Below are positions 9,986 through 64,000 of a DNA stretch of 64,000 nt, piece after piece; position 1 is the stretch's first letter; the number at the start of each line of letters is the position of its first letter. A program made the translations under genes and the position numbers. The notes under the pieces are model-generated. The model saw nothing but the letters and a program-made list of their open reading frames with translations, was not told the DNA's origin and made no database searches. This stretch comes from Raillietiella orientalis (lineage: Eukaryota), in assembly GCA_036172245.1 (NCBI GenBank), contig JAYWIR010000031.1:1798001-1862000 (forward strand), written 5' to 3'.

Positions 9986-9989
9986 GTTC

Positions 9990-19790: not shown

Positions 19791-19839
19791 CTGGCAAGAA
19801 GCCGAACTCCGACCGAGAAGAGTTCGCTTCCTTCAGTAA

Positions 19840-20093
19840 GAGTTGACTCCATGATTCCTGGAGGAACCACAGAGAGTCAGCTTCCAGCCCTGGTCATTCA
19901 ACGGGTGCATCCTGCTTCCACCAGTACCACACCCAAAGTCCGTGGGCCAACCAGCTTCATCTTACGAGGGGACTCGAAACTGACGACGCACCCATTTCAC
20001 GGCGTCGATCCTTCCCTGGGTAGGATTCGAACCCTCAACGCCTGGTACCAAGCACGAAGACCACAGCTACACGGTCTCCAACGCGGATCCAGG
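19840..20093 (-). repeat. tRNA-headed SINE-like repeat, partial copy
   Basis: B-box GGGTTCGAATCC (reverse complement at 20023-20034) followed by the body shared with other copies. Confidence 0.75.
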
Positions 20094-23885: not shown

Positions 23886-24418
23886 TGTGTTGCTCTCCGG
23901 CCCCTGTGGTTGCGCTACGCAATGCCCCTTGGGGTATCAAAGGACAATCCCAGAGACGTGTTGAAGCTCCTCTTCGTGCGCGGTGCCCTTTCGCCTGCCG
24001 CATCCCCAGCAGTTCTTTGCTGTTTACGTGGGATTGTGGCGGATTGGAGCTCCGCGAGAGGAGGACGGCGCGATGGTGATGTCATCTGCTTCGCCATGTG
24101 CTTCATGAGGACGGCAGCAAGATGGCTCCACCTGGGTCATACTTAGATGGAGCTTGCTGCCATCCTGGTATGGATGCAGAGGACGCCCTCCAACACCCCA
24201 TGATCCCTTCCCTAACCCTCCCAATTTTCTTGGAATTAGTTTTTTTTATTTCACTTTCATTCTTATTTGTCCCCTTCCCCTCCGCTGCCGAAGCGATCCT
24301 CGCCGGCCTGCATGCCGGTCATTCAGCAGGTTCCGAGCATTTTCGGACCATGTAGGGCCGATGGCCATACACATGTATGTTTATTATTTTTTATAATAAA
24401 CGTACCGGTGTGAAACCC
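23885..24418 (+). mobile_element. L1/Tx1 LINE 3' fragment (ORF2 end and 3' UTR)
   Basis: CCLRGIVADWSSARGGRRDGDVICFAMCFMRTAARWLHLG matches the family C-terminus; AATAAA at about 24395. Confidence 0.85.
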
Positions 24419-33480: not shown

Positions 33481-36369
33481 GGCCATAGAAATGTCCAAGA
33501 GGTAAATTCCCTGTTGTCTGATCTCAAAGAAATGGTAACCGATAAACGGCGAAGATGTATGGGAGGAAACGATGATCCCGTTTCTGCTCACAGATCGCTT
33601 CCTCTGTTTTCTTTCCGGTAGCGACGCCGTGAGTAGTTTCGATCCTTCCACCGGATCCTATCGATACCATGGTATTGGTGCATTCCTTGGCAAAGCTTTG
33701 TCGGCAAGAGGTAGAATCCGCCATTTTTTTCTCCCTGACTCCTTATTGGATGGGACGCATGTCGAAAAAATCTCCAGATCCACTGAGGTCCTGGATACAC
33801 TTAATTGGTAGGTGTTTCCACAACCAGAATCGATAGACCGTACATTCACACGTCAGAGACTGATGATGCAACCTCCGCTACCGCGCCGCTTCCACCCTGA
33901 AATGCCCCATTTCCCCGGTTCCCCCTTCACGAGGAACCAGCAATCCCGTGTCACTTCTCTTCACAGTACACTTCTTTTCCTTGAAGACAGCCTTCCAGTC
34001 TGGGGCGAACATAGGGAAGCGAGAGACTCGTGGGCACGCCTGGTCAACATCTCGTCTGCTGAGAACTCCTTGGACAAATGAAGCGTCGGTCTTGCAGGTG
34101 CAGGAGGAGTACTGATGGGGGGCAAGGGGGAGGCTCTGCGAAGTCCCGCTGTGTTAATGCTTATCATTCTTGTAAGTATCTACCCAGTATCAATGGCACA
34201 TGTTGTATGTGAACGATAGGTGGTCAAACATCCGGAAGAATGCAAAAGCCTGTACCTTCGAAGATGGATAAGTCGGAATAACAGCCGAAAGATTCGCGTT
34301 TGACTCAGGAGGCGCAGATTCACCACTGGGATGAGCTCGCTGCAGCGCAAGGAAGCATGGCATCCCCTCGCCCGAAAGCATCCGGACCAAGGGAGGATCC
34401 TTGACTCGCGCTGCCTCAATTGCGACGCGCGAGCTTCCAGCTTCCTTGCTGACGGGAATGACCACCGGACATCCGAAGACAGAGACCCCGGAATAGCAGC
34501 CGAGGGAGTTTGCACGCGATGGACGCAGGAGACACCGCGGAGGTCGGCAAGCAGATCAGGGGAGACCCCTTCCCTGCTTCCGATCCTTGCACGCCAGGGA
34601 TCTCCTGCTCGCTCCAGCTCGCTCGCCGTTGCGCTGTTCGGATAACCGTGCGGGCCGGCGGCCTCCAGCAGGAAGCGGCGACCTCCGGCTCGAACGTGCA
34701 GGGGGCGCTCTTCACGGGAAGGGGGCATCCTGAATGGTGGCGGGCGAGGTTCCAGCTCACCCGCTGAGGGTGCGTGACCACCTGGTCCGTTGCATCGTGG
34801 GAGGGAGCTGGTGGTCCCCAGGGACAGCCGATACAGGGAGGGGGGCCAAGTCAGGACTCTGGCAGCCGGACCTGGTGCCCCTCCAGGACGAAGGTCGGGT
34901 CGGGTCATCGTGCTAGACGCTGCCTGCGTACGCGAGCTCGCGGCAACAGCGTCAGAGGAAACGCAGCGAAGGGAAGGCACTGCGTGTCTGGGTGGAGGTC
35001 CACTCTTCCCGACAGAGGACCTCGGTTCGGAAGCTGGCGGCTGGGTCCTCAGGAAGCGAAGAACGACGGGACGCCTGGAGATCTCGACGGTCCTCGCGCA
35101 CGCGGGCAAAAAAAACCGAAAAGGAGGACGGTAGCGTACGCCCGCATCCAATGCAGCCGGGTCAGGGGATTTACCGGGGCACATCCTGGGGTCAGCGACC
35201 ATGGTGAACGACTGCATGCGTGCTTTTGATAGCGGAAGAAAAGAATGATGGAAACTGTGGAGGATTCCCTCCTCCTCCTCAACGTTTATCCTATGCAACT
35301 GAACAGCACAGAGATCCGTTTTCCAAAGAAACGGGAGATTTACGATGATTCATCCATCGCATGAGTAGTGGCAACGTTGCTTCTTCGTCTCACTGATCGC
35401 CATCATAGCTGACAGTAATGGCTTTCCATTTCCCGTCTTCCCCGAAGAACAGATCCGCGTGCGTGCACGTGCGGCAGTTCGACTCCAAGCCGATTTTCCC
35501 TCCCATCAGTCAGAAAGGACGCTGGCATCGTCCATCAGGGAGCGCGCTGACGTGAGTGGGGCGAGGTGAGCTCAAGCAGCAGCAGTTCCTCGCCTGTGAA
35601 ACTCAAGGGACACTGCTGTTCTTCATCCCCCAAAGACATCTCTAGAGATGTTTCTGAGATTCTTGCAAACGGTGGCGTTCTCGAGCGTCTCTTGCGGAAA
35701 GATTCCAGGTCACGGCCTGAGCTGCCCTCTCGCTCCACCTCGGAAGTTGCTAGCGCTTGCTGGAAGGTGCATGCATCGCGAGAATCTTCCTTCTCCTCGC
35801 GAGGAGCATTCCCGCAGTCTCAGGTTCGGATCTGAAGAGGAACGTTTCCCTGCTTTTTTCATGCCGTCCTCCAGGTCCAGCCGGGATTGTCTTTCACTCT
35901 TGCGTGATGATCCACGAAACGGTTCTCCGCGGTACTGAAGGAGGAGACGTTGGACGCGGCGTGCAGTTTCCTCCGGTCGGAGATTCCATACGCGACGAGC
36001 GCACACGCCTCCTACCGGACGCGCTCTCGCAAATTCCCGTTCGCTACCTTCGTGATAAACCCTACTTCCAGAAGTTTCTCGGATTGGCTTTCAGTGGGAA
36101 TGGCGGTTTCTGGAAACGTCCGAAGCACAAGTGGGAGCGGCGACCTTCCGCTTCCCTCTCTGCTCCGCGCTCTTCCCTATCTCGTCGTTCCGTGCTCACC
36201 GCCCGCGTAATTTTCAAACTTCCAGCCTCGCGCGCGTGGATTCTTTCGAAGACTGCATGTCTCGAGAAGGCAGCGTTCCTCCTTCCTCCCGTATCCGGCT
36301 TTCTGTCTCCGCGGCCTGCATGCCATCTTAAGGGGTCACTGATCCCCTTTGCCTTACCATTAACTTATT

Positions 36370-36665
36370 TCCCTGGAGGGTGCTCCCTGAAGGGTGCAGC
36401 GCTCTTCTGAATACTCTAGAGAAGCAACCCCCTGAGGTAGGGGTGTCAACCAGCTTTACGGTACTCTATGGACAGCTCCATTTTCACAACCAGAGGGAAA
36501 CCCCGAAGGGAACGGGCTCCTTGACTCCTGGAAGGACCCCAGAGAGTCAACTTCCAATTCCGGGCACTCTAGGGGGGACATCCGGATTCCCATAGTGCCC
36601 ACCCGAAAGCCCGTGGGACAACAGCCACTATCCTGCGAGAGGACTCGATTTGTCCCAACCCGCAA
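36370..36665 (-). repeat. SINE-like repeat, internal fragment
   Basis: ACTCCTGGAAGGACCCC...GTCAACTTCCAATTCCGG...AAAGCCCGTGGG matches the reverse complement of the SINE body. Confidence 0.75.
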
Positions 36666-37688
36666 CAACTGGCACCATGCAAGGGAACCGCATCCACACG
36701 GATGCCAACGCGGGCAACCGATTAGTAAAGTATGAACGGGAAGAGATGCGATTTTCCTGTTGCTTCGAATCTGTCAGCAGTGTCCATCAATCTGAGCACA
36801 AAGCAGACGTCAGCAACCATCAAACCGGTGGCTGTGAAATGAGGATTCACGCGATCCCTCACTCGTTTCCAGACGAGATGGTTCCCTTTTGCTCGCACGC
36901 CGGTAGTGCGGTTCCAGCTGGCTTCAGATACGCTGCTTATGTCGGTTGGCATGCCCAGAGTGCGTGGATGGATTTAGCGGCAGCTGCGGAACACAAAATC
37001 TTGTGCTCCGCGGAAACAAGCCATACACCGTCGGCGAAGCGATTTAGCGTCTTGCTCCGAAGATTCTTGACTCTTTCTCACCTTGGCCCGGATTCTCTGG
37101 AACATTTCCTTGCTTCCGTTTGATGGTTGCCATTTAGGGCAGTTCGTCCCTATGGTGTTGTCCTCTCGGAATAGGAAAAGAAAGACACAGAGAACACTCC
37201 CGAAGGACCATCTTCATTTCTGCTTATCGGTAGCAGACGTCACTGGTTCCCGACAAACTCTCCTGGTCTGGGAAAGCGGACAGCCGGCCGAAATTCCGAA
37301 TGCATTTCAGGTATCAGAAAGACTCTCTTCAGCATTTTAGCGGCGAACTCGTCGAAGAGGAAAAAGGTGGATGACAGGCGAGCCATCCAGAAGCGAACCT
37401 TCGCAGAGATCGTCTCCTGTGCAGCCAAAAGCTCGCAAGCAGGGAGACCTCTGCTTTGCAGTTGTCAAGACAAAATTTTGCGCATCTTCGAAAAAGAGAT
37501 GAAGAAATTTTTTGGTTCCGATACGACTTTCTTTGGTTCAGAGCTGAAGATAATGTTCCGCTGCAGTACTGTGTTTGGAATCATCTGCCGCAGAGTTGTG
37601 CACGAACTTTCCCCGATGAAAAATGTTGCCAAAGACACGAGTCATGAGGTCTTCCGTATAAACCATTTGCTCATAGGAAGAAGTCTTT

Positions 37689-39050
37689 CGCCAGTCATGC
37701 CATGGCGTTTCTTTTATAAAAATAAAAATCACTTGGGAACACGTCGATTCCCAAACGACGACAACAAAAGCCAAAGGGAAGGGTCCACCGGCACGCAGGA
37801 CGGAATAACGGATATCCGAAGAGGGAGAAGGGATCAGGGGACAACACACAAAAAATAAACTCTGTGGGATTGGACAGGGATCTTAGAGTTCGCTCCGAGG
37901 GGTACTGGGATAAAAACAAACACACCGGGGAAGTTGCAGAAAGAATGGAGATAGGGAATGAGAAAAAAATTAGAACAAATAAAAGGAAGCAGGGGATAAG
38001 GATCACCGGTGTCCGCCGTTCCTAACTTCCCTGAAAGCGGCGCTGGATGCCGGCGATCTCCTCCTTCGCCCCTTCTTCCAAATGAGGCCACCTCGCAGCC
38101 GTCCTCATGTAGGCGGCTGTCATTCTGGTGACTTCCCTAACTGCGTGGGCGTCTCGAGTAATGGTGGGCCGTGGCAATGGCACGGATTCAACCCATGGTT
38201 GAGATCACTGCTCCCGTCAGTAGTCCTCCCGGAGCGAAGAACCGTCGCAGCAGGTCGCGGGCGGTGCCCTCCTGGTGCACGAGTGCTGCTGAGTGCTGCC
38301 AGCCTCCTCCATTGTTCCTGGAGAGCACCGCAGTCCAGAAGCAGGTGCGACGGGATCGAATCCGTCGCCCCGTACCTGGCACCATTCGGGGACGCGACCC
38401 CTCCGGAAACTCGGTACCACCGCTTGTTGCACGGGAACCTCCAGGGAAAGAAGAGCAGCACACGCCCTGTTTCCGGGAGAGCGGCAACGCAGAAGTGTCT
38501 CGACATTGGAGAGGATTCGGGGATACACTGAAGAGCTCGCTCCACCGAAGGAGTCAGTTCGCGAAAGCACGCGGAGTAGCGGCATCCACCAGCTCGCGTG
38601 TCTTCCATCCGCCAAGGAGTTCGGTGCTTCCCGCGATGGTGCAGAAAAACTCCCACCTCGCCGGTCAGCTACTGTCGTCTCTTGTCCTGAGGGCAGACAG
38701 CGCTGCGGCGAAGGGTGTGGTGGCCAGGGTCGACCACTTCGCCACGCCCCGCATCCCCACTTCCAGAGGTGGTGGCACCAGATGTCGCAGGGGGAAAAGT
38801 TCCTCCGGGCGTAATCCCCGGAATGCAGCTCGGGACTCATCGGCCTCCTGCCGCCAAGCATTGGAGTTCGTCGGGCGGCAGGAGACCCGCAGCTGGACTT
38901 CCACTAGTGAGGCGATCTGCCTCAGGAGGAAGCCGAATCCCCGCATCTTGTAGTGGGTGCCCGGCAGCGGCGAGAGAGGTCCTTCGCTGCCATCGCTTCT
39001 CCGCAGGGTGACGCGTGCAGACGCACGCAACGGGGCTTCTAGAAAGAAGT
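37689..39050 (-). mobile_element. L1/Tx1 LINE 3' fragment
   Basis: SHLLLDCGALQEQWRRLA and AYMRTAARWPHL in minus frames; T-rich 3' UTR. 38179-38989 is an inverted near-identical copy of 49731-50541. Confidence 0.8.
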
Positions 39051-42290: not shown

Positions 42291-42460
42291 GACGATCAAA
42301 ACTCGTCGCAGGGACGGACCGAAAAGCACAACAAGAGAAGATGGTGAAGGCTCTTCGTTTGTTTGCATCGTCTTTTCTTAAATATATATAGAATAGTCTG
42401 AGTTGGTTCGTGTTTCATTTCTTGGAATGCTTAACGTTCATCCTCGTTCCCGGGATGCCA

Positions 42461-42918
42461 GGATCCGCCCGCGTTGACAGCCTTGTGACTGAGGTCTCCA
42501 CATGTGGCACCAAGCGTTGCGGGTTCGAATCCTTACATGGAAGATCTACTCCGTCATAGGTTTCGAGTCTCCTTTGCGGGATGACGCTGGTCGGTTCAGG
42601 AACTTCGGGTGTGGCACTGGTGGAAGCCAGAAACTGGATGTCCCGCTAAGTGGCCGGGATCGGAAGCTGACCCTCCGGAGTCCTTTCCGGAATCAACGAG
42701 CGGTCCCCTTACATGCTCCCTCCGGAGAAGATATTTCAGGAGCGGATTCCTTCCTAGCTTCGTTCGGAGGAGACATAATGGTGTGAGCCCCTCCGGAAAG
42801 AAGAAGGAAGAAGATTCCCTTCGAGGTTCCCTCCCAGGCGTAAGAGCAACCGACTGTTTCATCCATAGTCTTACTGGATTCATAGGGCGGTCCCTACAAG
42901 GTTGTCCTCCTTAGCTTG
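42461..42918 (+). repeat. tRNA-headed SINE-like repeat (uninterrupted at the LINE target site)
   Basis: B-box GGGTTCGAATCC at 42521-42532; empty site GGGTGTGGCACTGGTGGAAGC at 42607-42627. Confidence 0.8.
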
Positions 42919-42997
42919 AAGAACACGCACGTTCACGAACGAGCACGCTAGTTAACACGCACATTCGACAGAATGCTGACGGAACGCAGCCAAGAGC

Positions 42998-46000: not shown

Positions 46001-47054
46001 CAATCTGGAGAATTGCCGCGAAAAAAGCGCGGTTACAAAAGAGTCAGCAATTTCTGGAATAGATACTGCAAATCGATCCCGCCTTCCCGACGTTCTATCC
46101 GGGAAAAACAAAGGAAAAGAAACATCCGTTCTTCTGAAAATAACGCAAACTGCTCCTTCTTCAGCGACTCGCGAATTCGCACCGAAGATAAGTTGAGAAA
46201 ATCACTTCCTTATTGGGAATTCAGATTCTTCGACGAAGACTTTCCGCAAAACCTTATTCGTTCCACGCCACTGTCGGCGGACGAAGATTCCACACTCGCG
46301 AGGTTGAGCGCTGATGCTGGACTCGGATGGAATCAACTTTCAAGCCGATGAGGCAAAACCGATGGACCAACGGAGCAAAAGACTCTGCGTAAGTGCTCGC
46401 CGCAGTCTCTGGCAGCACCGGCGGCTGTCAAGGGCTCCCACGTGCTTGTGCTCCAAGAAAAAAAAGGGAAAAGGAATTCCACAGACCCGAAAACATCAAG
46501 ATGCTCCTGAGGTTTTCGTCATTTCTTCGGAACGGAAGGTAACGCTCGCCTCGTCTAATGAAGAAAGGTCTCGTTAGTCCAGGAGTGAATGGAGATGCAA
46601 ATCAAGTATCCGACTTTTTTTAATGGTCACATTTCAATTAATGGTGGCACTTAAAATGGCTGCGCATTTCTGGCGACAGGAAACAAAGCAGGCGCCTGCA
46701 ACGGAACTACGGGATACGCCATCTGAACCTTTCGTTTACTCAGCAGATGGGATTTCGACTCTTAATTGAATACCGAAGCATCGACTACTCATTAACTGAT
46801 TGCAACTTTTGAGGTTGCGAATCTGCCCAGCATTCTTTTTCTTTTTTTGGGGGGGAACTCTGAAAATCAGTGTAGTTCAAACAAGAAGATACGATGTGTT
46901 TTCTATAATAATAATAAAAAAAAAAAAGGAAACAAAAGGGGTAGGAAACGCAATAAGAAACAAACTGACAATAAACTTCTCTGCATCTCCCACAGGTGGA
47001 AACGAAATCACCTTATAGATTTACCTGAAGGAAGAGCTCGCCAAAATAAATCTG

Positions 47055-48590
47055 CGTCCGTGTTGGCTGCGGTCTCCGAGAGCGGTACCAAACGTGGCGG
47101 GTTCCAATCCACACGTGGTGGATCGACTCCGAGAAATTTGGGGGAACGGGGTGCGTCATGGGTCCCCTCCCTGCAGGCTGGTCAGCCCACGGGCTTTGGG
47201 CGCGGCACTGGTTGACACCCGGTCACGCCGGGGCGTTTATTTCTAAACCTACATGTCTATGGCAAGACGTTTGATCCTGCCACGTTATTTATGGATACGA
47301 AAGGGAACCTGCCAGGAACTGGCACACAGGCCCGCAGGGTTCGCCTAGGCAGCACAGGGGAAGGGGAGACAAACGAAATGAAAAAAAAAAAAAAGCAAAA
47401 ACTGCAGTCAAAAAGTGGGGGAAGGGGGGGGTTGGGGAAGGGATCGCTGTGTGCAGGAGGGCGTCCTCTGCATCCTTGTAAGGATGCCGGCAAATTCCTG
47501 TTTTATGGTTCCCAAATAGGGACATCTTGACGCTGCCCTCATAAAGAGGACAGCGAAATAGATTGCGTCCCTGTCGTTCCGGCCTCCTCTGGCGTTGCTC
47601 CATGCAGCCACGGTCCCGCCGCGTAGGCAACAGAGTACTGCTATTGATGCGGCCGGCATGACGGCGTCGCTCATGAAGAGGCGCTTTAAAAAGTCTCTAG
47701 CGTTGCCGTCGGGAGTTTCAAGGATCGTGGACAAGCGTCCCCAAAGGGGCCGGAGGGCAACACAGTCCACTAGGAGGTGCGGGAAGGATTCCCGCTCCCC
47801 GCACCTTGCACAGTTTGGGTTCATATGCACCCCATGTCCACGGGTGTCGGCAGGCGTTGCGCGGAAGGCCCCGGTGCAGCAGCATCAACGCCGACTCCTG
47901 CCACTTCAAGGGGAGGGTGTGGGTGTTCATGAGCACCGGGTGTTCATATTCCGGAGGAAGACCTAGCAGCACGTCCCAGCGCAAAAGTCCACGAAGTCGA
48001 TCAATCGGGGTCGCAGAGTCAGTGAGCTGGCCCGTCGTCCACTCGCCCAGGCCTTTTCTCCTTCCGGAGCTTTCCATAGTAAACTCCCATCTAGTCGTAA
48101 GACCGCTGCTACTCATATCTCCCTATACTCATAGCTCCCTAAGGGAGGGCAGCGCGGCTGCGAGGGAGGTTCTGCTTGTCCACGCACTCTTCACGGTATC
48201 TTCCAGGATCTCCCGGAGCGTGCAGCCGTTGTTGGTGCGCGCGTACAGGAAACGTCGCAGCTGTTCCGCGCTTGGCTCCTGGATTCTCGCTCATGTGCGC
48301 ATGGCTTCCTGCAACCAGGCACTACCGTGGGATGCGACACCGATAGAAACCGGACGCCCTTGTCGACTGGCCGGAATTGGAAGTTGACCTTCTGGGGTCC
48401 TTCCAGGAACCGAGAAGTGGGGTTTGTTTCGTGGTTCCACTCCCGTTGTGAAAACTGAGCTGTCTTCCCCCTCGGAAGGGGGGGAAAGGGGCAGCCTTCA
48501 TTGTGGTACCGTGGAGCTGGTTGATACCTCTCCAGAGTGCAACAAGCGCACTGCTCCCTTCGAGGAGCGCCCTTCAAAATCAATTTTCAG
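47055..48590 (+). repeat. SINE-like repeat interrupted by an antisense LINE fragment
   Basis: Head with GGGTTCCAATCC (47099-47110) to 47212; body resumes at about 48329. Confidence 0.75.
47213..48328 (-). mobile_element. 5'-truncated L1/Tx1 LINE inserted in the SINE
   Basis: CARCGERESFPHLLVDC, LPLKWQESALMLLHRGL; perfect terminal hairpin at 47218-47232. Confidence 0.9.
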
Positions 48591-49730
48591 AGTTCACGTC
48601 ATAAATCAATAGTGTGGGCAGCAGGGCTTGTACTTTTTGGTTCAGTTAGTAGTGGTAGCAGGGTTGAGCAAGATCTCAATCCCGCCCTAGACGTCTCTGC
48701 CGACATCAAGTCTAAACCTGTAAACGGAATTCGCGATACTTTGAGACTGTTTATGAGAAGCATCCGCTGATCTGAGGTCTTCGTAGTCTTCGACAAGTCC
48801 CTTAAATCGAAAAGGCAGCACACGATGGGGAAGTTCTGAGGCAGGTAGACCGTGGCCACGGAAACCTTCACGCGGGAAAGCGCAGCCAGCAGACCGGCGC
48901 CGAAAGGACAGCAAAAATTTCAAATGAGAGGAGGCATCCGAGAGCAGAGATTTTCTTCCGTGATACTTCGTCATTGAAAATCTTTTTCGTCGAACTGCAC
49001 CTGCTCCGATGCGCTGAGCGGCCCCGGTGTTTGAACACGAAAACTCGAGCGCGTTTGAACACAACAGCACGGATGCTCTTCACTTTCCTCTGGAAGGACA
49101 GTGTCGCTCAGAAGGAAGCGTATTGATCATTCGCATCCTGCACATCTGTTCTCACTGTAAGTGTCCGCAAGATGCTGAACATGAATCATAAAAGCAGCAT
49201 GGATACACACTTCGGGACCAGGAAGCAGTGCCAAAGTGCCAATCATATACTCCTGGCTACATGGGGATTGAAATTCCAGGAGCACGCACTGATGAATGAA
49301 GTTTCCTTAATTCGAAGCTTTTCTCGTGGAATGGCCAGTGCGAGGAATAAATCACGCAGATCCACACTATAAACGTGGGAAAGCGGCGGTTTTAAGAGTG
49401 CTCCGCATTCAAACCCAAAAATCGTGTAGCCGCTTCTGCGTCTCCCAGACGCTGCGTCTTGAAACCAGAAGATTTTTTCCTTCTCCCCTTGCCCAATATC
49501 TTGCAATGAGAGTTCTCCTCGCAGACTTTTACGGAACGCCGTTTCACGTGCCGTGCCATCCAAATTGAGATCTTGCGGGGAAAGGAGTTTGCGGCGTCGC
49601 ATAAGAAAAGATGAATGCTGCACGCAGCATCCGTATCAGCTCGTTTCATATGAAACTCGGCGTGGCTTTAGCATCGGATCTTGCCTGACTTTGCGCAGGA
49701 AAGTCAGGGAGTCTTCGCGTTGAGTCACGT

Positions 49731-50832
49731 CAGCGAAGGACCTCTCTCGCCGCTGCCGGGCACCCACTACAAGATGCGGGGATTCGGCTTCCTCCTGAGG
49801 CAGATCGCCTCACTAGTGGAAGTCCAGCTGCGGGTCTCCTGCCGCCCGACGAACTCCAATGCTTGGCGGCAGGAGGCCGATGAGTCCCGAGCTGCATTCC
49901 GGGGATTACGCCCGGAGGAACTTTTCCCCCTGCGACATCTGGTGCCACCACCTCTGGAAGTGGGGATGCGGGGCGTGGCGAAGTGGTCGACCCTGGCCAC
50001 CACACCCTTCGCCGCAGCGCTGTCTGCCCTCAGGACAAGAGACGACAGTAGCTGACCGGCGAGGTGGGAGTTTTTCTGCACCATCGCGGGAAGCACCGAA
50101 CTCCTTGGCGGATGGAAGACACGCGAGCTGGTGGATGCCGCTACTCCGCGTGCTTTCGCGAACTGACTCCTTCGGTGGAGCGAGCTCTTCAGTGTATCCC
50201 CGAATCCTCTCCAATGTCGAGACACTTCTGCGTTGCCGCTCTCCCGGAAACAGGGCGTGTGCTGCTCTTCTTTCCCTGGAGGTTCCCGTGCAACAAGCGG
50301 TGGTACCGAGTTTCCGGAGGGGTCGCGTCCCCGAATGGTGCCAGGTACGGGGCGACGGATTCGATCCCGTCGCACCTGCTTCTGGACTGCGGTGCTCTCC
50401 AGGAACAATGGAGGAGGCTGGCAGCACTCAGCAGCACTCGTGCACCAGGAGGGCACCGCCCGCGACCTGCTGCGACGGTTCTTCGCTCCGGGAGGACTAC
50501 TGACGGGAGCAGTGATCTCAACCATGGGTTGGATCCGTGCCCAAAGGAGTTGCCAGGGAGATCGCCTCCATCCAGAGCCTCTTTTAAGAAGGAAGAAATG
50601 TCTCACGCCAAAGACCCCTGTCCCCACTCTCCTGTCTCCTTTTATTTATTCATTGTTTCCTCCCTCCGTTCCCTAGTTTTTGGAAACCGAACTACGTATT
50701 GGTGGTTATCCTGGGTGAATCTTTTTCTTGGCATTTCTTGTTTTTTTGAGGAGGTTCTTTTCTCTTCTTCCTTGTAGTTTATTCTTTTTTTTTTTTTTTT
50801 TCAACATAAATGTCCCGGCGTAACCGGGTTCC
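49731..50832 (+). mobile_element. L1/Tx1 LINE 3' fragment
   Basis: Inverted near-identical copy of 38179-38989, plus its own 3' UTR ending in CCCGG-CGTAA-CCGGG (50814-50828). Confidence 0.85.
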
Positions 50833-51559
50833 AACCTCTCGCCATTCGGCCGGTTTCATCTCTGAGGTTCGGGCATTCCAACTTTCAAGTTCCATTTTTC
50901 TTTTGGGAGCCTTTTATTTACTTTTGCCCAACTGAGCGGCAGATTTTATTCCTCGTGTTGCGTCTGGACTTTCAGGTATTACATGGGGTTTCATGCATCA
51001 TCCGTTAAATGACCCAGTCTGTGTATCCAATAGACGTCTCTGCTGCATCAAATGGTTGAGGCAGGCATTGACATTCCTGATCATTTTCCACTTGCACATT
51101 CCATTTGATGAAATGCTGTTGCAGATCTGTGGGAGCGATTGAATCCCCGTATCTTTCGAGACTTTTTTTATGCTTAGTTGGTTCGGAAACGGAGCAGCAA
51201 CGATCGGCGTGGTGTGCATCTTCATTACCAGTCCTTCCATCCAAGCATTTAAGTGGTTCCTGTGAAGTTCGCTGTCGGTCCTGTAGTCATGGCCTTGGAT
51301 GGAGTTTACCACCCTCTTCGGGCTTCATCTCCAAGCGCCTGGATCCTGGAACAGATTTCTGGCACCGGAAAGGATACTCATTCGGGTCAGCCCTCCACCC
51401 TTTCTGGGCGGCAGCCACATTTAAGAGGACTCCGTGGAACCGGAAAAGAAACTTCGGACTTCTCAATGCTACTTTCCCCAGCATCCGAGACCGTTTCGAT
51501 CGGTCACGTCTTCATCTTTGAGATCCGGGAGGAGGAGGATGCTCCTGCAGCGTTGGTGA

Positions 51560-52330
51560 GCTGCCCTATCTCCGGGATCACTAGGCCCACCGGTCATCGG
51601 GAAACTGCTAGGCTGGCGAGCGATGCTACGCCGAAAGATTTGCAAGATACAGAAACGCTATCCACCTCTGCGGGCTAAAGGCTCGCAGAGGTGGATAGGG
51701 TTTCTAGGCATTTCCCGCGAAAACTTGAAGATCCCGGGATTCCTAGTGGGCGAACTCCACTATCGGCGGACCATCGCCTTGTTGGTACAACGGACCTTCT
51801 CCCGAAATGAGGAGTGCCGGCGCTCCTCATCGCAAGGGACGCTTCTGAGAGTGCTGCCGGAATGCGGGAAGCTGAGTCAGGGACGGGAGCGAGTCGCTGG
51901 GCGCTTCCGTTTTGCGGTATCGCCCCAGAAGACCTCTCTTAGAGAGGTGTACACGTCTTCAGGCTCGCCTTGCTGCTGGCGATGACTTGCCACGTAAGCT
52001 CAGCGTTGGCTGCCGCCATATATAACGAGAAGAAGAATGCGCGTGACAGACATCCCGGGAAGGGCACGTTGGCGATCGCCATCGCCTACACGCGAAGGGC
52101 GCCACACCACTCTCTTCCACCCCTCCTCTGCCCGACGCAGGCCTTCGGAAATCAAATGGAATCCGTGAGACCGGTCCATCTCATCCCCTATCTATTTATT
52201 TATTTATTGTCCCTGCCTCTACTCCCCCCTGCGAGGGCAGTCCCCATCGGTACGAGCCGACATATGCCGCCACTGGGCTGTAGGAATTTTTTGATTTATT
52301 TGTTCATTCTAAACAGATAGTCCGGCCGCG
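51560..52330 (+). mobile_element. Old, degenerate L1/Tx1 LINE 3' fragment
   Basis: RWIGFLGISRENLK (like RWGELLGIP..LK), decayed zinc finger LLRVLPECGKL, pyrimidine-rich 3' UTR. Confidence 0.55.
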
Positions 52331-53229
52331 TGGGATGAAAAGGGAAATCCATCCTGTAGCTTCAGAACATCTCCCGGGAGCGCTGTATCTTGCAGAAAAC
52401 TCTTTCTTTCCTGATGTGCTCGATTCGCCTTTTCCGGATTTTCAGTTGTTTTCTTGAGACCTCGTTCCCTGGGTTCCAAGCTCCGGGAGCCTCACAACAG
52501 TGGCTCTTCTTGATGTAAACAGTCCTTTACTGGGGTCGCGCCGAACCATACTTTAGCGTTTTCCGGGGCCTTTCCCTTAGGGCGGGAAATCGCCTTCCAA
52601 CGGGCAGGCGTCGTATGTGCTGTTCGGGTAGAGGGCGTCGGATTGAGACCAAGGAACGAAAGGAACCCCCTGCAGCCGAGGAGCAGGTGGAAAATTCCAT
52701 CCGCACTTGGAGCAGGGAACTTTCTGGAGCTTTGAGAGTTCATACAAGGAAGGTCATTTTCGTTTGCATGTGCACCACGAAGTGAAACCGAAAGTGGACG
52801 AAAGTTTGAGAAACGTTCGCGACTGGTTTTGGACGTTGGCTGGGGTCGGAACTAGTCAAGTGTGTGTGATTCAAACAAAAAAGCTCTCTCTCGGAAAAAA
52901 AAAAAAAAAATCGACGGAAGATGAAAGTGCTCTTTTCATCATGAAGAGATGCTCCCGAAAACACAGCGCCTAGACTTGACAGCATGTCGGAAACACCAAG
53001 AGATGCAACGTGCACTTGTGCACCGAGCATTTTCTCTAGCAACTTAAAAATCCACTCTGTCCATTCGGCTCGTGAGGAATGGGCGATCCTCTTCTCTCGG
53101 AATCACCCCGAACATTTCATCTACCCACCAACGCTTCTGAACGCTCTTTACAGTTGATGACACGTGCCGAGCAGGAGCTGGTGCGGTGGATGGCTTCTTC
53201 CTCAAACCAAACTCTACCAGATGTTTCCG

Positions 53230-54008
53230 TGAAACCTGGTTTCTCGCTCCCGTTTCAGGCTTTCCTTTTCCTGCAAATTCAAGCACTTAAGAACTGCCTT
53301 TTGCCTGGAGGTCCACGGAGCACTTTAAGACTGTCCATGCCACCCTGGGATGCATGTCAACTCTTCAAAATAGGAGGCACCCAGGAGGGGACCACCCTAT
53401 AAATCCAGGAAGGGCACCGCGGAGAGGAAAGTCCATTCCTCTCACATTTGGGGAGAGCCCAGAAGGGAACCCTCCACTCTGGTTACCTCCGAAAGGAACC
53501 TCTTTTTCGTTCTCTCCGGAATGGCCACTCCATTATTTCTTCTCCCAAGGGAACCCGGAAAGGATCGGCTCCTGAAATTTCTTCTCGGGAGAGAACCCGC
53601 AATGCAACCCGCTCCTTGTTCCCTCCTCCTCTAAAGAAAACCCTGGAGGGACGCTTGCAAATTTCTGTGAAGGGCGCTCTTCGAAGGGAGCAGCACACTT
53701 CTTGACCCTCTGGAGAGAGAACCCCCTGAGGGAAGTGTCAACTAGCTCCAAGGCAAGAGATGGAGGGTCCCCCAATAGCGGAGATGACTCCTTTTCACAA
53801 TCGGCGGCAAACCCCGGGGGCAACCCACTCCTTTAATTCCTGAAAGGACCCCTAAGGGTCAACTTCCAGTCCCGGCCACTCAACGGGGGCATCCGGTTTT
53901 CGGTTTCCACCGGTGCTGCACCCGAAGCCCGTGGGCCAACCAACGTCATCTTGCGGGAGGAACTCGAAACCCACGACGCTCCACCTCCCCATTTCTCGGC
54001 CTTGATCC
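53230..54008 (-). repeat. SINE-like repeat lacking its tRNA head, fused to a LINE 3' end
   Basis: Body matches the other copies from just after the B-box. Confidence 0.75.
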
Positions 54009-54016
54009 TTTATTTT

Positions 54017-54661
54017 CACCCGGTCACGCCGTGGAGTTCCTTGGAAAAAAAATATTTACAAAAAAACAAATCAAATAAGATACAAAATGCCCGTCTTCGT
54101 AGTGGCTTTACATGATCACGAAGAAGGGAAAAACCGCCTCGGAGGCGCTGCTTCGCGCGAACAGCTCCATCGGTGGGGCCCGCACACGAGGCGTGGGGGG
54201 AGGGGTAAACTAAAACAAAAGAAAAAAACAAACACAACAGTTCAGTTCGAAATTTGTGTTGGAAAGACCACAGATTTCTTCCTGGAGTCCACAGCATCCT
54301 CTGCAGGATGTCGACAACTTCCTCCTTCTGTTGGCCATCTTATCGTCTTCCTCGTGAAGGAGCACACAATTGCCATGACCTCCACTCGCCTCTTTTTGCG
54401 CAACCGCGATCCCACGAGGGCAGCACGGAGCTACAAGAGAAGCTGCAGGCGACATCCAGTCGCGAGAGAAGAGGCGCCATCCATAGGGAGTGGAAGGACC
54501 GCAGCGGAGCGTTCCCAGCACTCAGGAGAGCAACGACACAATCCAGTAAGAGGTGCGGGAACGTTTCCCGTTCTCCTCACCTGGCACACTCTGGGGCTAC
54601 GCTCCTCCTCGTTCACTGGTGGACTCGTGTGCTGCGTGGGATCACCCGGTGCAAGGACTGC
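54017..54661 (-). mobile_element. L1/Tx1 LINE 3' fragment
   Basis: Terminal CACCCGGTCACGCCG at 54017; zinc-finger region CARxGERETFPHL. 53822-54661 is near-identical to 62561-63400. Confidence 0.85.
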
Positions 54662-57584
54662 CATGTTGCTCCTTCATGAAGAAGGCGACAAGATGGCCAC
54701 ATCTCTGCCAACAAAAGAAGGAAGTTGCATCGATCCTTTGCGAGTATTCGAACCCGTAGTGCTTAGGTCACACGGCCTCCGGCTCAGACTGGTTTTCCTG
54801 AGGAAATTTCCTACCGTTCTTTCCGATCCTTCAAACAGCGTCGAGACGATCAAGAGAATCCCAGTCACCTCGACGAACCGAGGATTTGGGTGGCGGAGGG
54901 AGAGTTTCGCGCTGCTGGAGGCGTAGATGCGAAAAGAAGAGCCGGGTTGACCGACGTGCACGAAAAGAACGTTTCAGATTCTATCTTAATTTGATGATTC
55001 TGTGGGAGGAGAATCGCCTGCACCACTTAATCCTTCAACGGAAGCTGAGAATTTCGTCACTGGAGCTTCCGAGAGAGAATCTGAGAACGTTATCTCCTCC
55101 ATGAAATCTGGAGGAAATCTGTAGAGTAGAGAAATCTACTTCCTCACTTGCCATTCCAAAGAAGCCGTGCACACGTGATGAGATGAAGCAACTTTCTGCG
55201 ACGACGCGATCTGCCTATCAGAAAGCTATGCATTTTCGACTGATCCCGGGGTGTCCACCGGGATGTGGAGAATCCAGAACTCTTTCCCATCACTCAAACT
55301 AAGGATGAGCACTTGACCTTCGTTTTCCAAACATGGATGGGTCCAAACATGGGAAGACAATTCAAAGGCAACAGAAGGAAAAGGACGTTGTATTTATTCT
55401 CTCGTGGTAACCCGCTAAAGAAGGATCGTTTGAGAACATAAGCTTCCTGATGACTGCAATTACTGCAACCTTTATGTGAAACAAGTGGAAGGGCTACAGA
55501 TTCTGTAGACGGCACGGGAAGAATTGCCTTTTAAGGGACATTTAGATCGAAAATCATTTGGAAATGCTTCCTTGAAAAGAAACACCAATACGTTTTCTCG
55601 GTGCCTCTTCAGCATTCTTTTCTATGATCCCTATCAATGGAATTACCGAAACCCTCGAGTGCTTTTTGAATGCGATTGCTTTGGAGAATCCATTCTTCCT
55701 CTTCATACGAAGCTCAGCATGCTTAGGATCCACTCCTTTGCCAGCTATGGTTATTATTCTCAGTAAGGTTGAGTTGCTGCCAGATCAAAGGAGCAGAAGG
55801 ACCTCCGTTCCGTGCAGGATATCTTGGAATTGAATCTTTAAAATGAAGAAATGTCGAACAGACAGCTTTCCCAGATGAAACTCGTGAGGACAGAAAAGCA
55901 CACGGACTGAAGGCCAAGAAGGTGCCCACATTTTTTAAAAGACGGCACTTCTTTGCGTCGAGAGACCCCAGACACAGAAGGAACCATTGCTTAACGAAGG
56001 CTCCTCAACAGACAAAAATAAACTTAGGAATGACACGAAAAGGCAGAAAGATGGAAAACACCGAATGATTATTTTTTATACTCATTTAACCCTTTTCTCC
56101 TCCCCCCCCCTACTGCCTGGGTTGGGGTATTTTTGAGGGGAGGGACTAAAAGTTGTGCCCCGAACCTCTGTATCCGTACAGCTCACCGCCCACGCACATA
56201 TATGGGAAAATTTCCGTTCAACAAGTTTTGAGGGATGGACACCAGCTACCCAGATGTCAGTTTCCCCAGTGCTGCAGAGAGGTACTCAGTGCTTTCAACC
56301 CACAAGTTCAAACGGACACCGAACCGGGAACCACATCCAAACTGTCCATGGAGCTGATCATTTCGGCGCTATGACGACTGCTTCTCATATCACCTCCTAG
56401 CGGAAGCAGCGCACGTTCGATCTTTCTTGCACTGATGCGCTTCTTATAACGACTACAGAGCGAGGTTTCCCGGTCGTGGAAGACGCTTTTCAAACCAGAG
56501 GCATAGGAACAGTTGCAGCACGTCTGCTTTCAAAACGCACTTCCAATATATCAAAGTTTTCCGAGACAGCAGCATGATTTAAACTCTGACCAAAGTTCAG
56601 GAGAGAATAAGTTTGCATGAATTATTCTCAGAAATCTTCATTCCCTGATTTCCCTTAGTAATGTAAACCAAAACTCATCAGGAACAGATTTCGAGAAGCA
56701 CCACCCTGCTTGTGTGGAGCATTCGACTCCGACCTAAAACAAGGTGGTCCGACGCACTTCTATAACTCAAATACGAAAGGTGTTTCTCGCCGAAAAATCT
56801 TCGCCATGGTGATAGCGTCTCCAGAAGGAGTTGTCTACGCTGATGCTGGAAGACGAAAAGCTCATCCGATCTTCTTAAAGGAGTTTGGGGAACAGCTTCC
56901 CCTCCCCCCCTTCCTCTTGGGTCTTCCCCTAGCTTCGCTTCTCAATTGAAAAATCTTGGGGTAAATGGACTCTTTAGCGATTCCAGAATCTCCCTTCCGT
57001 CATCCCTAGGCAACCTGTCCAATATTTTCTAAGGCCGAGATGTACTAGAGGATTTTGTTCACTTCTTCACGTTTCCTTTGGGCCCTCACACTTCATTAGC
57101 CAGCTGCAACCAGCTGATGACACGAGGGAGTGGAGGAGGCGTTTTCACAAGCGTTCGATTCACTGCCTAAGTCACCACGATCCAAAAGTGACTTATTAGA
57201 TTTACACGCTGGTATCTGGAATTTCTGAATTGCTGAACCATCCTTTGGGGGAGGACCTGCATGCGCACGTGCACGGTTCACGTGATTCCTAGATGTCGTG
57301 ATGTCTTTCTGTGAGAGACTTCGATTACGCCTTCCAAATCCGTGCATTTCAGTTACCACAGATACGACCGAAGTCCGTACAGTTCAACTTTCAGCATGAT
57401 TTTCAAGTTATCTTGCCTCTCCGTTGTGAGGACACGCTAAACTGCCCTTTGAGGCGAGTTAAGTTGATACATCTGGGAGCATCGCTTCCAGTGGAGCTGC
57501 AAGTGCAGCCGAACTCTGTTCCTCTTCCATGAGTAACATAAGAGACCCCCCCACTTTCTAAATCTCACCGTGATCTCATCATGA

Positions 57585-58880
57585 GCGAGCGTGGGGTTCC
57601 AGTTTTCCCCGCAAGACGGCGCTGGCTGCCTATTAGGGCGCTGCGGCACTGGTTGACACCCACTCTCGCCGGGGCGTTTCTTTATAAAGAAGAAACACAA
57701 ATGTTTGTGACAGGACGTTTGATCCTGCCACGTTACCTATAGCTAGCGAGAAGGAACCTGCCAGGAACTGGCACGCAGGCCGGCGAGATTCGCCTCGGCA
57801 GAAGAGGGGGAGGAGGACAAACAAACAAAAAATGAAATAAAACAAAAAACATACAGTCAAAAAAATGAGGGGTTCAAGAAGAAATTACCGTGTGCTGGAG
57901 GGTGTCTTCTGTATCCTTGTGAGGATGCCGACAAGTTTCAAGACTCCCAGATGTTTCAAGACTGTTTTAAGACTCCCATCTTCATGCTGTCCTCATGAAG
58001 AGTACAGAAGAATAGATGGCATCCCTGTCGTTCTGCCCCCTCTGGCTCTGCTCCATGCAGCCACGGTCCCTCCGCGTGGGCAGCAAACGTGCTGCTGGGG
58101 ATGCGGCCGGCATGACGGCGTTTCCATTGCCTCCGGGGGTTCCAAGGGTCGTGGCTAAGCGCCCCCAAAGGGACCGGTGGGCAACCCAGTCCACTAGGAG
58201 GTGTGGGAGGGATTCCTGCTCCCCACACCTTGCACAGTTTGAGTCCACACATCCCGTGTCCATTGATGCCGGTGGGTAATGGTGGAAGCAGGAAACCGTA
58301 TGTCTCCATGGACTGGCATGTGCTGGAAGTTGACCCTGAGGAGTCCTTCCAGGAATGAATGAGTCCTTTGGGGTTCCCCTCTGGCTGACAATGGAGCCGT
58401 TCCATGGAGCTGGTTGATAACTGGTTGAGCTGGAGAGGCAACCCCCTCGGGGGATTGCCTCTCCAGTGCCTAGGAAGTGCGTTGCACCCTCCGGAGAGCG
58501 ACCCTTCAGAGTCGAAGCACCCCTCCCAGGTTTTCTTCAGAAGACTAACAAAAAGAGGATCCTTCCTGGGTTCTTTTCGAAGAAATAATGGGGTGGCTCT
58601 CCGGAGAAAATATGGAAGAGGTTCCCTTCGAAATTCCCTCCCAAGAACAAGGGGAAAAGAGTTCTCCCTTCAAAACCTTACTGGATTCATAGAGAGGTTC
58701 CTACGGAGTTGTCCTAGTTTGAAGAGTTAACACGTACTTTCTGGTGGCGCGGACAGTCTTTAAGAGCTTTGTAAGACCTCTCTATCGAGACCAACGGTTC
58801 TTCAGCACGTAAAGAACCAAAAAAAAAAAACTGGAAGGAAAGCAGCAAAACCAGGAGAACCCAAAGGTTTCCATCATGCA
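57585..58880 (+). repeat. SINE-like repeat interrupted by an antisense LINE fragment
   Basis: SINE sequence to 57653 and from 58271 onward, including the A-rich tail region at about 58819. Confidence 0.75.
57654..58270 (-). mobile_element. 5'-truncated L1/Tx1 LINE inserted in the SINE
   Basis: CARCGEQESLPHLLVD...DRDAIYSSVLFMRTA; 3' UTR similar to that of the 47213 copy. Confidence 0.9.
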
Positions 58881-59149
58881 CTGTCCAACCGAGATTCCCC
58901 CCAATGTCCGTCGAAACTGTCCAGCCAAAACAAGAGCCCGCAATGCCGCTTGTCTGAGGGGCGATGTTCACACGCTGGGATCTGAGAAGTAGCCTAAAAT
59001 CCTTCAGCATCTCTGCAAGGGGGAGTTTTCCCACACGACTGATGGCACTGTTGATTGGGCTTTCTACGGAAATCCACATTTTTCCCAGCGATCTTTCCGC
59101 CAAGCAGTCGTGTTTAGTGGACGGCGGGATACCCACCCGTGTTCCTCCA

Positions 59150-61480: not shown

Positions 61481-61612
61481 ATTTCTTCTTATAAAGCTCC
61501 GACTGACCATTTTGCTGTTGGAAAGCCTTTTGGGTGTGTGTGGGGGGGGGTTAACGAAAAGACCAGTAGCGACCTCGGGTGGAGATCGTTACTACCGGAA
61601 AAGGATGATTAT

Positions 61613-61995
61613 CACCCAGTTGTGCCGGGACATTCACTACTTAAAGGAATAAAAACACATTTTTGTGGTAGAACCAACGGTTCTACCATGCGCAATGAAC
61701 CTGCCGAAGAGCGGTACGGAGGCCGGCGAGGTCCGCTCAGGTTGCGTGGGGGAAGGGAAAACAAAACACAAAAAAATGAACAAACAAAACGGGGAGAGGG
61801 AATTTATATACGGGGATGGGGGAATCGAAGAAGGGATCTCGGTACGCTGCCAGGAGTCCTCTGCATCCTGTTCAGGATGCCGGCAAGTTCCGTCCGGATA
61901 GTGCCCGCGTGGGGCCATCTCGAAGCGGTCCTCAGGAAAATCCGAGCCTAGGGGATGGCGTCCCTGCCATTCTGGCCTCTTCCTCTCGCGTTGGC
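61613..61995 (-). mobile_element. Short L1/Tx1 LINE 3' fragment
   Basis: FLRTASRWPH in a minus frame; terminal hairpin variant CCCGG-CACAA-CTGGG. Confidence 0.8.
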
Positions 61996-61999
61996 TTAG

Positions 62000-62747
62000 G
62001 ATGATGGAAATCTTTCAGGACTCTTCTGTTTTGCTGTTTTCCTTCCAGCTTTTTTTTTTTTGGTTCGCTAAGTACTCAAGAACTGTTCGCCTAGGAGCTC
62101 ACGAGACCCTTTAACTCGAGGTCCATGCTACCCGAGGCTGCGTGTAACTTTTCCAGTTAAAGGACAGCCCCTTAGGGATCACTCTATAAATCCAGGAAGG
62201 CGCCGGAGGAAGGAATGCGTTCTTCTTACGGTTGGAAGAGAACCCCGAAGGCAACCCTCGTCATGGTTGTCTCCGAAGGGAACCCCGTAGAGAACCTCTT
62301 CCTTATTACCTCCAGGGGGATCGCTCCCCATTTTTCCTACAAAGGAAATCCGGAAAGAATTCTCTCCTGGAATTTCTGATCCACAGGATCCCCGCAAGGG
62401 AATTTCTACTTATTTTTTCCTCCCGTGAAGAGAACCCTAAAGGGACGCTTACAAATTTCTCTAAAAGACGCTTCCTCGAAGGGAGCAGAGCACTTGACAC
62501 TCTGGAGAGGTATCAATCCACTCTGGAGGCATCCATGGTAGTAGATGGACAGTCAAAGAGAACCCACTCCTTTAATTCCTGAAAGGACCCCTAAGGGTCA
62601 ACTTCCAGTCCCGGCCACTCAACGGGGGCATCCGGTTTTCGGTTTCCACCGGTGCTGCACCCGAAGCCCGTGGGCCAACCAACGTCATCTTGCGGGAGGA
62701 ACTCGAAACCCACGACGCTCCACCTCCCCATTTCTCGGCCTTGATCC
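62000..62747 (-). repeat. SINE-like repeat lacking its tRNA head
   Basis: Body and T-run tail correspond to the reverse complement of 58271-58880. Confidence 0.75.
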
Positions 62748-62755
62748 TTTATTTT

Positions 62756-63960
62756 CACCCGGTCACGCCGTGGAGTTCCTTGGAAAAAAAATATTTACAA
62801 AAAAACAAATCAAATAAGATACAAAATGCCCGTCTTCGTAGTGGCTTTACATGATCACGAAGAAGGGAAAAACCGCCTCGGAGGCGCTGCTTCGCGCGAA
62901 CAGCTCCATCGGTGGGGCCCGCACACGAGGCGTGGGGGGAGGGGTAAACTAAAACAAAAGAAAAAAACAAACACAACAGTTCAGTTCGAAATTTGTGTTG
63001 GAAAGACCACAGATTTCTTCCTGGAGTCCACAGCATCCTCTGCAGGATGTCGACAACTTCCTCCTTCTGTTGGCCATCTTATCGTCTTCCTCGTGAAGGA
63101 GCACACAATTGCCATGACCTCCACTCGCCTCTTTTTGCGCAACCGCGATCCCACGAGGGCAGCACGGAGCTACAAGAGAAGCTGCAGGCGACATCCAGTC
63201 GCGAGAGAAGAGGCGCCATCCATAGGGAGTGGAAGGACCGCAGCGGAGCGTTCCCAGCACTCAGGAGAGCAACGACACAATCCAGTAAGAGGTGCGGGAA
63301 CGTTTCCCGTTCTCCTCACCTGGCACACTCTGGGGCTACGCTCCTCCTCGTCCACTGGTGGACTCGTGTGCTGCGTGGGATCACCCGGTGCAAGGACTGC
63401 GATGCCCAGTCCTGTCCCTTCAGGGGAAGCGTGAAGCCGTCCAGAAACACTGGCAGAGTCTGTACCTCTTCTAAGGGAATATCCAGAAGCTCCGTCGAGC
63501 GGAGAATTCCTCTGGGGTGGGCGGCGGGGGTGCATGCATCACCCAGTTGAATCGCCGTCCAGCATTCCAGCTGCCTCTTCTCGCCCGCGATCTCGCAGGC
63601 TACTTTCATCTCGCGAGGCCATCGCTACGTCCACCTCGTTGGATGGTGATGAGCGTGGCTGCAAGTGGGGTGCCTTGCGCTCAGGTGGCCTTCCTTGGGT
63701 AGTCCATGATTTCCTGCAGCGAGCGTAGTTGGAGGATCGCAGGCATGGCGATGGCTCGTGCTGTTTCTTTTCGCCCACGCCTGAACAGCTCCCTGTTTCC
63801 AGGCACTGCGGTTGGCGTGGCTGCGCGAAATCCACCTATCAACCTGGACCAAGGCAGCCATTTTCCGGTGTTGGTACTCTCATCGGGGCAGCTCTCGCTG
63901 GCCATGCACGAGGAACGTACCGAGTTCCTCGCCGCCGGCTGCTCGCTTGGCGAAGAGTTT
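62756..63960 (-). mobile_element. L1/Tx1 LINE 3' portion
   Basis: ELLDIPLEEVQTLPVFLDGFTLPLKGQD, SAWKQGAVQAWA; terminal motif at 62756. Confidence 0.85.
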
Positions 63961-64000
63961 GGCTGGGACGCATCAATGGATAGTCGCTAGGGCTAATCTT

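Follow-up and report, generated by a model that had tools for sequence, protein, structure and literature searches.

The window analysed here is a 64,000-nucleotide stretch of Raillietiella orientalis DNA (assembly GCA_036172245.1, contig JAYWIR010000031.1, positions 1,798,001 to 1,862,000 of the forward strand), in which two fragments of a long interspersed nuclear element (LINE), denoted A and B, occupy the same nucleotide, position 196, of two copies of a short interspersed nuclear element (SINE), denoted SA and SB. The window looks like repeat-rich eukaryotic DNA: it is N-free, with 51% G+C, contains no long open reading frames, and yields no tRNA or Rfam match at default settings. All LINE and SINE copy counts below are confined to this one 64-kb window; the LINE profile was built from eight copies and the SINE profile likewise from copies in the window, and because these profiles recover their own source copies, the counts are minimum counts.

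Two LINE-SINE composites at position 196

The two composites consist of the following parts.

47032..47212, plus strand: SINE copy SA, 5' part (nhmmer with the SINE profile, E 1.7e-36; profile positions 3-196)
47198..47212, no strand: left target-site duplication of A, GGGCGCGGCACTGGT (sequence; profile positions 179-196 on both sides)
47213..48328, minus strand: LINE A, a 1116-bp 5'-truncated L1-like fragment (LINE profile positions 1596-2776)
48329..48344, no strand: right target-site duplication of A, GGGATGCGACACCGAT (sequence and SINE profile)
48345..48601, plus strand: SINE copy SA, 3' part, ending truncated at profile position 468 (E 1.5e-64)
57482..57653, plus strand: SINE copy SB, 5' part, strongly diverged (profile positions 9-196, E 3.6e-23)
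57641..57653, no strand: left target-site duplication of B, CTGCGGCACTGGT (sequence and SINE profile)
57654..58270, minus strand: LINE B, a 617-bp 5'-truncated fragment, sister of A (sequence, LINE profile and tree)
58271..58283, no strand: right target-site duplication of B, GGTGGGTAATGGT, followed by GGAAGC as in the empty sites
58284..58879, plus strand: SINE copy SB, 3' part, reaching the profile end at position 889 (E 5.9e-159)

Alignment to the SINE profile assigns 47032-47215 of SA to positions 3-196 and 48330-48601 to positions 179-468, and 57482-57656 of SB to positions 9-196 and 58274-58879 to positions 184-889, which places both inserts at position 196, antisense to the SINE. Positions 179-196 in A and 184-196 in B recur on both sides of the insert as a degenerate target duplication of 13-18 bp. 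Both inserts begin directly after GGCACTGGT, at the same SINE base: at 47213 as well as at 57654 the plus strand reads GCGGCACTGGT and then TGACACCC..CGCCGGGGCGTTT, the latter being, when read on the opposite strand, the 3' end that the LINE family shares. LINE A, with its 3' end at 47213 and without poly(A), carries an open reading frame (ORF) with a CCHC motif at 47408-47884, and its host resumes after the right duplication with about 7 nt missing. Microhomology with the target leaves an uncertainty of about 20 bp in the 5' end of LINE B. The A/B subfamily can be recognised by two sequence marks, terminal TGACACCC and, about 100 nt inward, GGAACCTGCCAGGAACTGGCAC.

With up to 3 mismatches allowed, the LINE 3'-end pattern TGACACCCNNTCNCGCCGGGGCGTTT is found three times in the window, where 100 shuffles predict 0: twice exactly, at 47213 and 57654, and once with 3 mismatches, at 9988. 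The exact string GGCACTGGT occurs three times, every time at this SINE site; with one mismatch allowed there are 15 occurrences versus 12.0 expected, so that the 9-mer by itself is not special. The original prediction, made from the sequence alone, had described two inserts of about 1.1 and 0.6 kb flanked by duplications of about 13-16 bp; the strings on which it relied are each present exactly where it quoted them (42607-42627, 47213, 57654, 48329-48344 and 58271-58283), and the profile alignments bear out both the different insert lengths and the duplications in the two composites.

The SINE family

The SINE is represented by eight copies totalling 4737 bp, or 7.4% of the window and 9.1% of its non-LINE sequence. 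The consensus of 891 nt, long for a SINE, is non-coding and multicopy. Its head holds GGTTCGAATCC, and ARAGORN at relaxed thresholds draws a cloverleaf at consensus positions 22-96 and also in S1 and S4; at default settings ARAGORN finds no tRNA in the head, and Rfam gives nothing there at E up to 1. Apart from SA and SB, the copies are as follows.

42456..42992, plus strand: SINE S1, with the empty site at 42607-42627 (SINE profile)
19657..20108, minus strand: SINE S4, site empty (SINE profile)
36336..36715, minus strand: SINE S5, site empty and degenerate (SINE profile)
53253..54011, minus strand: SINE S2 (profile positions 90-847), site 196 empty, broken by LINE F at about position 90
61999..62752, minus strand: SINE S3 (profile positions 91-889), site 196 empty, broken by LINE G at about position 91
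23256..23875, plus strand: SINE S6 (profile positions 13-729), site-196 region deleted (SINE profile)

Site 196 is kept in seven of these eight copies, being occupied in two and empty and uninterrupted in five (at 42.6, 19.9, 36.5, 53.9 and 62.6 kb), and the region is deleted in the eighth (S6, at 23.3 kb). In S1 the empty site reads GGGTGTGGCACTGGT^GGAAGC.

The two full-length SINE copies share about 55 nt past the A-run (58880-58935 and 61999-62050), ending in TTTCCATCAT; the A-run is thus internal and the SINE has no terminal poly(A). Several copies of a GGTTCCCTTCGGAG-like motif between consensus positions 280 and 660 (for example, at 42700-42850 of the window) suggest an internally repetitive origin of the SINE body.

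When the SINE consensus was aligned with five LINE copies on both strands, tail included, the local scores lay in or just above the range of 40 shuffles (for LINE D antisense, 16 versus a shuffle maximum of 15). Given the lack of detectable similarity, there is no sign that the LINE mobilises the SINE. Derivation of the SINE body or tail from the LINE was rejected, with no similarity beyond shuffles and no shared 3' tail.

An L1-like LINE family

The reverse transcriptase (RT) domain of the longest copy, LINE C, matches RVT_1 with E 1.2e-14 (54.9 bits versus a cut-off of 29.6). Downstream of the RT domain in element order, LINE A encodes CARCGERESFPHLLVDC, a CCHC motif of the form CX2CX7HX4C; its zf-RVT match is weak (E 0.0021, 19.1 bits, under the 27.5-bit cut-off). 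A search of longer proteins, with 8000 scored candidates, returned 74 proteins at E up to 1e-3. The closest relative, P0001, comes from a JGI contig of 2870 bp and shares 67% identity with copy C, and the others, which include plant L1-type and vertebrate RT proteins, are 23-37% identical. Among solved structures P0001 best matches human L1 ORF2p (PDB 8c8j, 8uw3 and 8sxt; E 7e-40 to 5e-39), and it matches R2-type proteins with E 1e-15 to 1e-17. From the RT domain, the CCHC motif and L1 ORF2p as the nearest structure, the protein sequence identifies the window LINE as an L1-like element.

The copies show variable 5' truncation, target-site duplications and a common 3' end, the terminus being shared by all ten 3' ends. 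The element lacks poly(A); its conserved 3' end reads ...AATAAACGCCCCGGCGTGACCGGGTG(N)3 and is predicted to form a small stem-loop of 5 pairs, for which no covariation support was found.

The C-terminal ORF of LINE A had no match in the protein search, and the A/B-specific 22-mer had none in viral or prokaryote-genome contigs. Protein-guided scans of the viral and of the prokaryote-genome contigs matched 52 stretches in each, none of which was confirmed. A metagenome scan with the LINE 3'-end pattern gave two loci, both unrelated GC-rich contigs without further LINE similarity, and these were discarded.

One insertion event or two

LINE A and LINE B are sisters (support 100/99, end branches 0.10 and 0.17), whereas their SINE hosts are not: the SINE tree is star-like, with end branches of 0.27 for SA and 0.35 for SB. 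Under the same gap filter the LINE parts are 79.0% identical (430/544) versus 57.8% (160/277) for the SINE parts (Fisher p 3e-10), and each host is nearer to other copies, SA being 67-69% identical to S2, S3 and S5, and SB 68% identical to S2 and S3. Furthermore, a segment of about 20 nt after GGTTGATAC is present in SB, S2 and S5 and missing at the same boundaries in SA and S3, so that this indel groups SA with S3 and SB with S2 and S5. In a sensitive comparison of 44-56 kb with 56-64 kb, all matches were between SINE or LINE sequences, with nothing collinear beyond the repeats. Given hosts that are diverged and non-sister, the indel, and the lack of homology outside the repeats, two insertions are likelier than one copied composite, and we lean slightly towards A and B being independent.

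The serious rival, which we consider somewhat unlikely, holds that a single insertion occurred, that the composite was then copied, either by SINE retrotransposition or by DNA duplication, and that B subsequently lost the 5' half of the insert when the stretch from GGGTGTCGGCAGG... inside the LINE to the similar target repeat on the right was deleted. Several observations are in its favor and correspondingly weaken the case for two insertions. Forcing a clade of SA and SB costs only 0.62 log-likelihood units (p-AU 0.28, approximately unbiased test). The excess divergence of the SINE parts consists mostly of transversions (17.0% in the SINE versus 6.8% in the LINE), with transitions being alike (13.8% versus 12.2%), a pattern that misaligned, indel-rich SINE sequence would give. 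The 5' junction of B falls where LINE A reads GGGTGTCGGCAGGCGTTGCGCGGAAGG (47841-47867), which is like the target GGGTGCGGCACTGGTGGAAG; this resemblance fits microhomology-assisted 5' joining and, just as well, a deletion that an A-like composite underwent at a later time. The two composites have the same 3' junction, agree over 11 nt of the left repeat, and lie only 10.4 kb apart in the same orientation. Against a single origin stand the far greater divergence of the SINE parts, each of which is nearer to other copies, the grouping by the indel and the lack of homology past the SINE ends; moreover, the deletion would have to stop exactly at the repeat. Thus, of the independence implied by the original prediction, the sister LINEs, the hosts only 58% identical, the indel and the unrelated flanks stand, and the check that it had put forward, congruence of the LINE and SINE trees, returns sisters on one side and non-sisters on the other, but the test does not reject a clade of SA and SB.

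Ectopic gene conversion, in which the insert was copied from an occupied into an empty SINE by homology-directed repair and resolved at the LINE-internal microhomology, appears very unlikely. Conversion-like tracts do exist at this locus. Positions 53822-54665 and 62561-63404 are identical at 99.8% over 844 bp, and this tract spans the 3' ends of LINEs F and G together with about 190 bp of SINE; the adjoining SINE is only about 69% identical, and one end of the tract falls at an indel, the other at the truncation of LINE F. The tract has the look of ectopic gene conversion or of patch copying in the very recent past. An inverted tract of 811 bp at 99.9% identity (38179-38989 and 49731-50541) likewise links the otherwise dissimilar LINEs J and K, 11 kb apart. 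These two near-identical tracts inside old copies indicate that repeats at the locus exchange sequence, which also counts against two separate insertions of A and B. However, no co-converted SINE flank is visible around A and B, to the left of the junction the two stop resembling each other after about 15 nt at most, which is not enough for strand invasion, and SINE copies that are about 60-70% identical are poor recombination partners.

Segmental duplication including unique flanks is unsupported, as there is no collinear similarity beyond the repeats.

Other copies of the LINE family and their association with the SINE

The LINE profile covers 18.5% of the window and recovers ten 3' ends (A, B, C, D, E, F, G, H, J and K) as well as fragments. 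The copies other than A and B are the following.

9988..12599, minus strand: LINE C, the longest copy, with the RT ORF at 11140-12120 (profile, Pfam)
4597..6165, minus strand: LINE D, flanks not SINE, no duplication found (LINE profile)
23876..24415, plus strand: LINE E, in S6 at about position 729, sense (LINE profile)
54014..54665, minus strand: LINE F, in S2 at SINE position about 90, in the same orientation as its SINE (LINE profile)
62753..63981, minus strand: LINE G, in S3 at SINE position about 91 (about 90), sense, longer than F (LINE profile)
61610..61997, minus strand: LINE H, at the 3' boundary (last bases) of S3 (LINE profile)
37691..39022, minus strand: LINE J, flank not SINE (LINE profile)
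49752..50837, plus strand: LINE K, flank not SINE (LINE profile)

Exact target-site duplications flank LINE E (10 bp, CCCTATAACT, at 23866-23875 and 24416-24425) and LINE H (8 bp, AGGATGAT, at 61602-61609 and 61998-62005), and LINE K has a candidate duplication, CCTCTCGCC, at 49743-49751 and 50835-50843; none was found for C, D or J. Beside LINE F, the repeat GCATCGATCCTTT at 54727-54739 matches 53999-54011 at 11 of 13 positions. The far side of F consists of an inverted LINE piece at 54667-54729 followed by a remnant of a SINE head, which is significant versus two of five heads only: none of 300 shuffles reaches its score with the heads of S1 and S4, and 50, 18 and 97 of 300 do so with those of S6, SA and S5. 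The inverted piece is an approximately 60-bp copy of the region of LINE F around 54315-54364 and is 88-90% identical to the matching part of LINE G; simple twin priming does not account for an inversion of this kind at the 5' junction.

Six of the ten LINE 3' ends (A, B, F, G, E and H) lie in or at a SINE, at four positions and in both orientations. The remaining four lie elsewhere, that of C adjoining LINE fragment I (9028-9985, plus strand) and those of D, J and K in non-SINE DNA. A blastn search of the sequence flanking C, D, G, H and E yielded just one SINE match, of 16 nt. With the SINE making up 9.1% of non-LINE sequence, the association has a binomial p of 8.5e-5 for six of ten ends and of 5.7e-4 for five of nine, with F and G counted once. 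F and G form a second pair at one SINE nucleotide (about 90, sense) with different 5' ends; the 844-bp tract of 99.8% identity runs across their junction, and they are therefore not independent evidence. Because members of the family occur at other SINE positions and outside SINEs, the family as a whole is SINE-associated and not specific for one nucleotide.

Proposed preference for the site and a possible mechanism

Both known copies of the A/B subfamily (2/2) are inserted at position 196. In simulations, a pair at the same nucleotide and in the same orientation in different SINE copies arose with p 0.00015 for nine random insertions, and a same-nucleotide, same-orientation pair with p 0.005 for five insertions distributed uniformly within SINEs. 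The coincidence of A and B at position 196 is thus far beyond chance.

The best reading of the data is that one L1-like subfamily has a genuine, non-random preference for a single SINE position; in our judgment this reading is about evenly balanced between being right and wrong. The sample consists of two insertions, A and B, in one window, and several further findings weigh against the preference. The same family also has copies in the opposite orientation, copies at three further SINE positions, and copies in another LINE or in non-SINE DNA. The nick sites read T^GGAA in A, B and H, G^GAGG in E, T^GCGAG in F and G^TCC in K, and beyond the T^GGAA of A, B and H no endonuclease motif common to the whole family was found. 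The hexamer TGGAAG occurs 96 times in the window, 22 times in SINEs, and four times in the SINE consensus. No endonuclease domain is present in any LINE copy in the window, all of which are 5'-truncated before that region; P0001 also lacks an APE-type endonuclease, and distant relatives such as P0003 carry PF03372.

These observations bear on the possibility that the double hit reflects only a short, loose endonuclease preference (such as for T^GGAAG) offered repeatedly by an abundant SINE, with other family members inserted elsewhere. We rate this explanation as very unlikely: a double hit on the same homologous site is unlikely given 96 sites in the window, and in none of the eight SINE copies is a LINE inserted at any of the other three TGGAAG positions. 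Depending on the length of the recognised sequence, the double hit may reflect genuine homing to the SINE or a hot spot that arises from a short motif in this abundant repeat. Homing of a whole LINE lineage to one SINE family, with a fixed nucleotide for each subfamily (196 antisense for A/B, about 90 sense for F/G and possibly others), seems to us unlikely, as does strict SINE homing, though it is possible. Accordingly, the SINE-targeting subfamily put forward in the original prediction gains from A and B sharing one base and from the simulation, and loses from the sample of two and from relatives at other sites.

If the preference holds, A and B would represent two separate events of target-primed reverse transcription, by which one L1-like, poly(A)-less subfamily inserted into two already diverged SINE copies. 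The endonuclease would nick the SINE sense strand at GGCACTGGT^GGAAG, after GGT within the site GGGTGCGGCACTGGTGGAAGCC, and the freed 3' end would serve as primer for copying the LINE RNA, beginning at the conserved 3' end of that RNA (...AATAAACGCCCCGGCGTGACCGGGTGTCA). A further nick, on the opposite strand and about 15 nt away, would give rise to the duplication of 13-18 bp. Copying would have ended prematurely, at 1116 nt in A and at 617 nt in B, and the 5' end of B may have been joined where the LINE resembles the target. We propose that the same nucleotide was hit twice because the SINE site is a strongly preferred target of the A/B subfamily; the LINE family as a whole would also be prone to land in the SINE, at other positions.

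Other features of the window

A 148-amino acid open frame at 31234-31677 (plus strand) matches Pfam Viral_Rep (PF02407) with E 7.7e-15 (55.4 bits versus a cut-off of 26). Viral_Rep being the replication protein family of circular single-stranded DNA viruses, this frame is probably an endogenous viral fragment; the neighbouring frame at 32013-32423 has no Pfam match. Another open frame, at 16150-16512 (minus strand), contains LLLHDNARLG...FKWELFDHP, which we take to resemble the catalytic region of mariner-type transposases, an assumption that Pfam, with no match, does not confirm.

Relation to known systems and implications

Retroelements can nest in older copies, as Alu and L1 do in the A-rich tails of older Alus, and an endonuclease motif within an abundant repeat makes a recurrent landing site without dedicated homing. 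Unlike the sites in Alu tails, the site described here is GC-rich and internal, with a duplication of 13-18 bp. The window LINE resembles human L1 in that L1 ORF2p is the nearest solved structure of P0001 and in having the RT domain followed by the CX2CX7HX4C motif; it differs from human L1 in lacking poly(A) and in its conserved 3' end with a small predicted stem-loop.

The closest parallels are LINEs of the Tx1 group that prefer transposons. A survey of these elements lists Tx1L in the piggyBac-type Tx1D, Tx1-Mar in Mariner-N4_AMi, Tx1-9_AMi in Harbinger elements, and Tx1-8_Crp and Tx1-4_AMi in long terminal repeat (LTR) elements, with small nuclear RNA (snRNA) genes and microsatellites as further targets (Kojima, 2015; PMC4494074). 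The likeness lies in an L1-like ORF2 element found repeatedly at one position of a mobile element that is itself multicopy, the insertions being 5'-truncated to varying extents and flanked by target duplications; the differences are that the target here would be a SINE with a putatively tRNA-like head, that the insertions number two, and that relatives in the window use other sites. The element is plausibly a new member of the LINEs that target other transposons; our analysis assigns it as L1-like only, the Tx1 label stemming from the original prediction alone. A LINE with a SINE as its preferred target was not found in our literature search, which included the available part of PMC4494074.

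The present evidence, a clean insertion pair and a strong local association, is only a lead. If homing of the lineage to the SINE family is true, this would be the first LINE with a SINE as its specific target, found in an organism in which LINEs share no more than 23-37% identity with named ones, and its multicopy SINE would act as a safe harbour. A LINE preferring a SINE would open a new target class beside microsatellites, DNA transposons, LTR elements and the genes for rRNA, snRNA and tRNA, and would be an instance of one retroelement living within another that relies on similar machinery. More generally, site-preferring LINEs show how an endonuclease and an RNA 3' end choose DNA, and offer natural models for targeted insertion.

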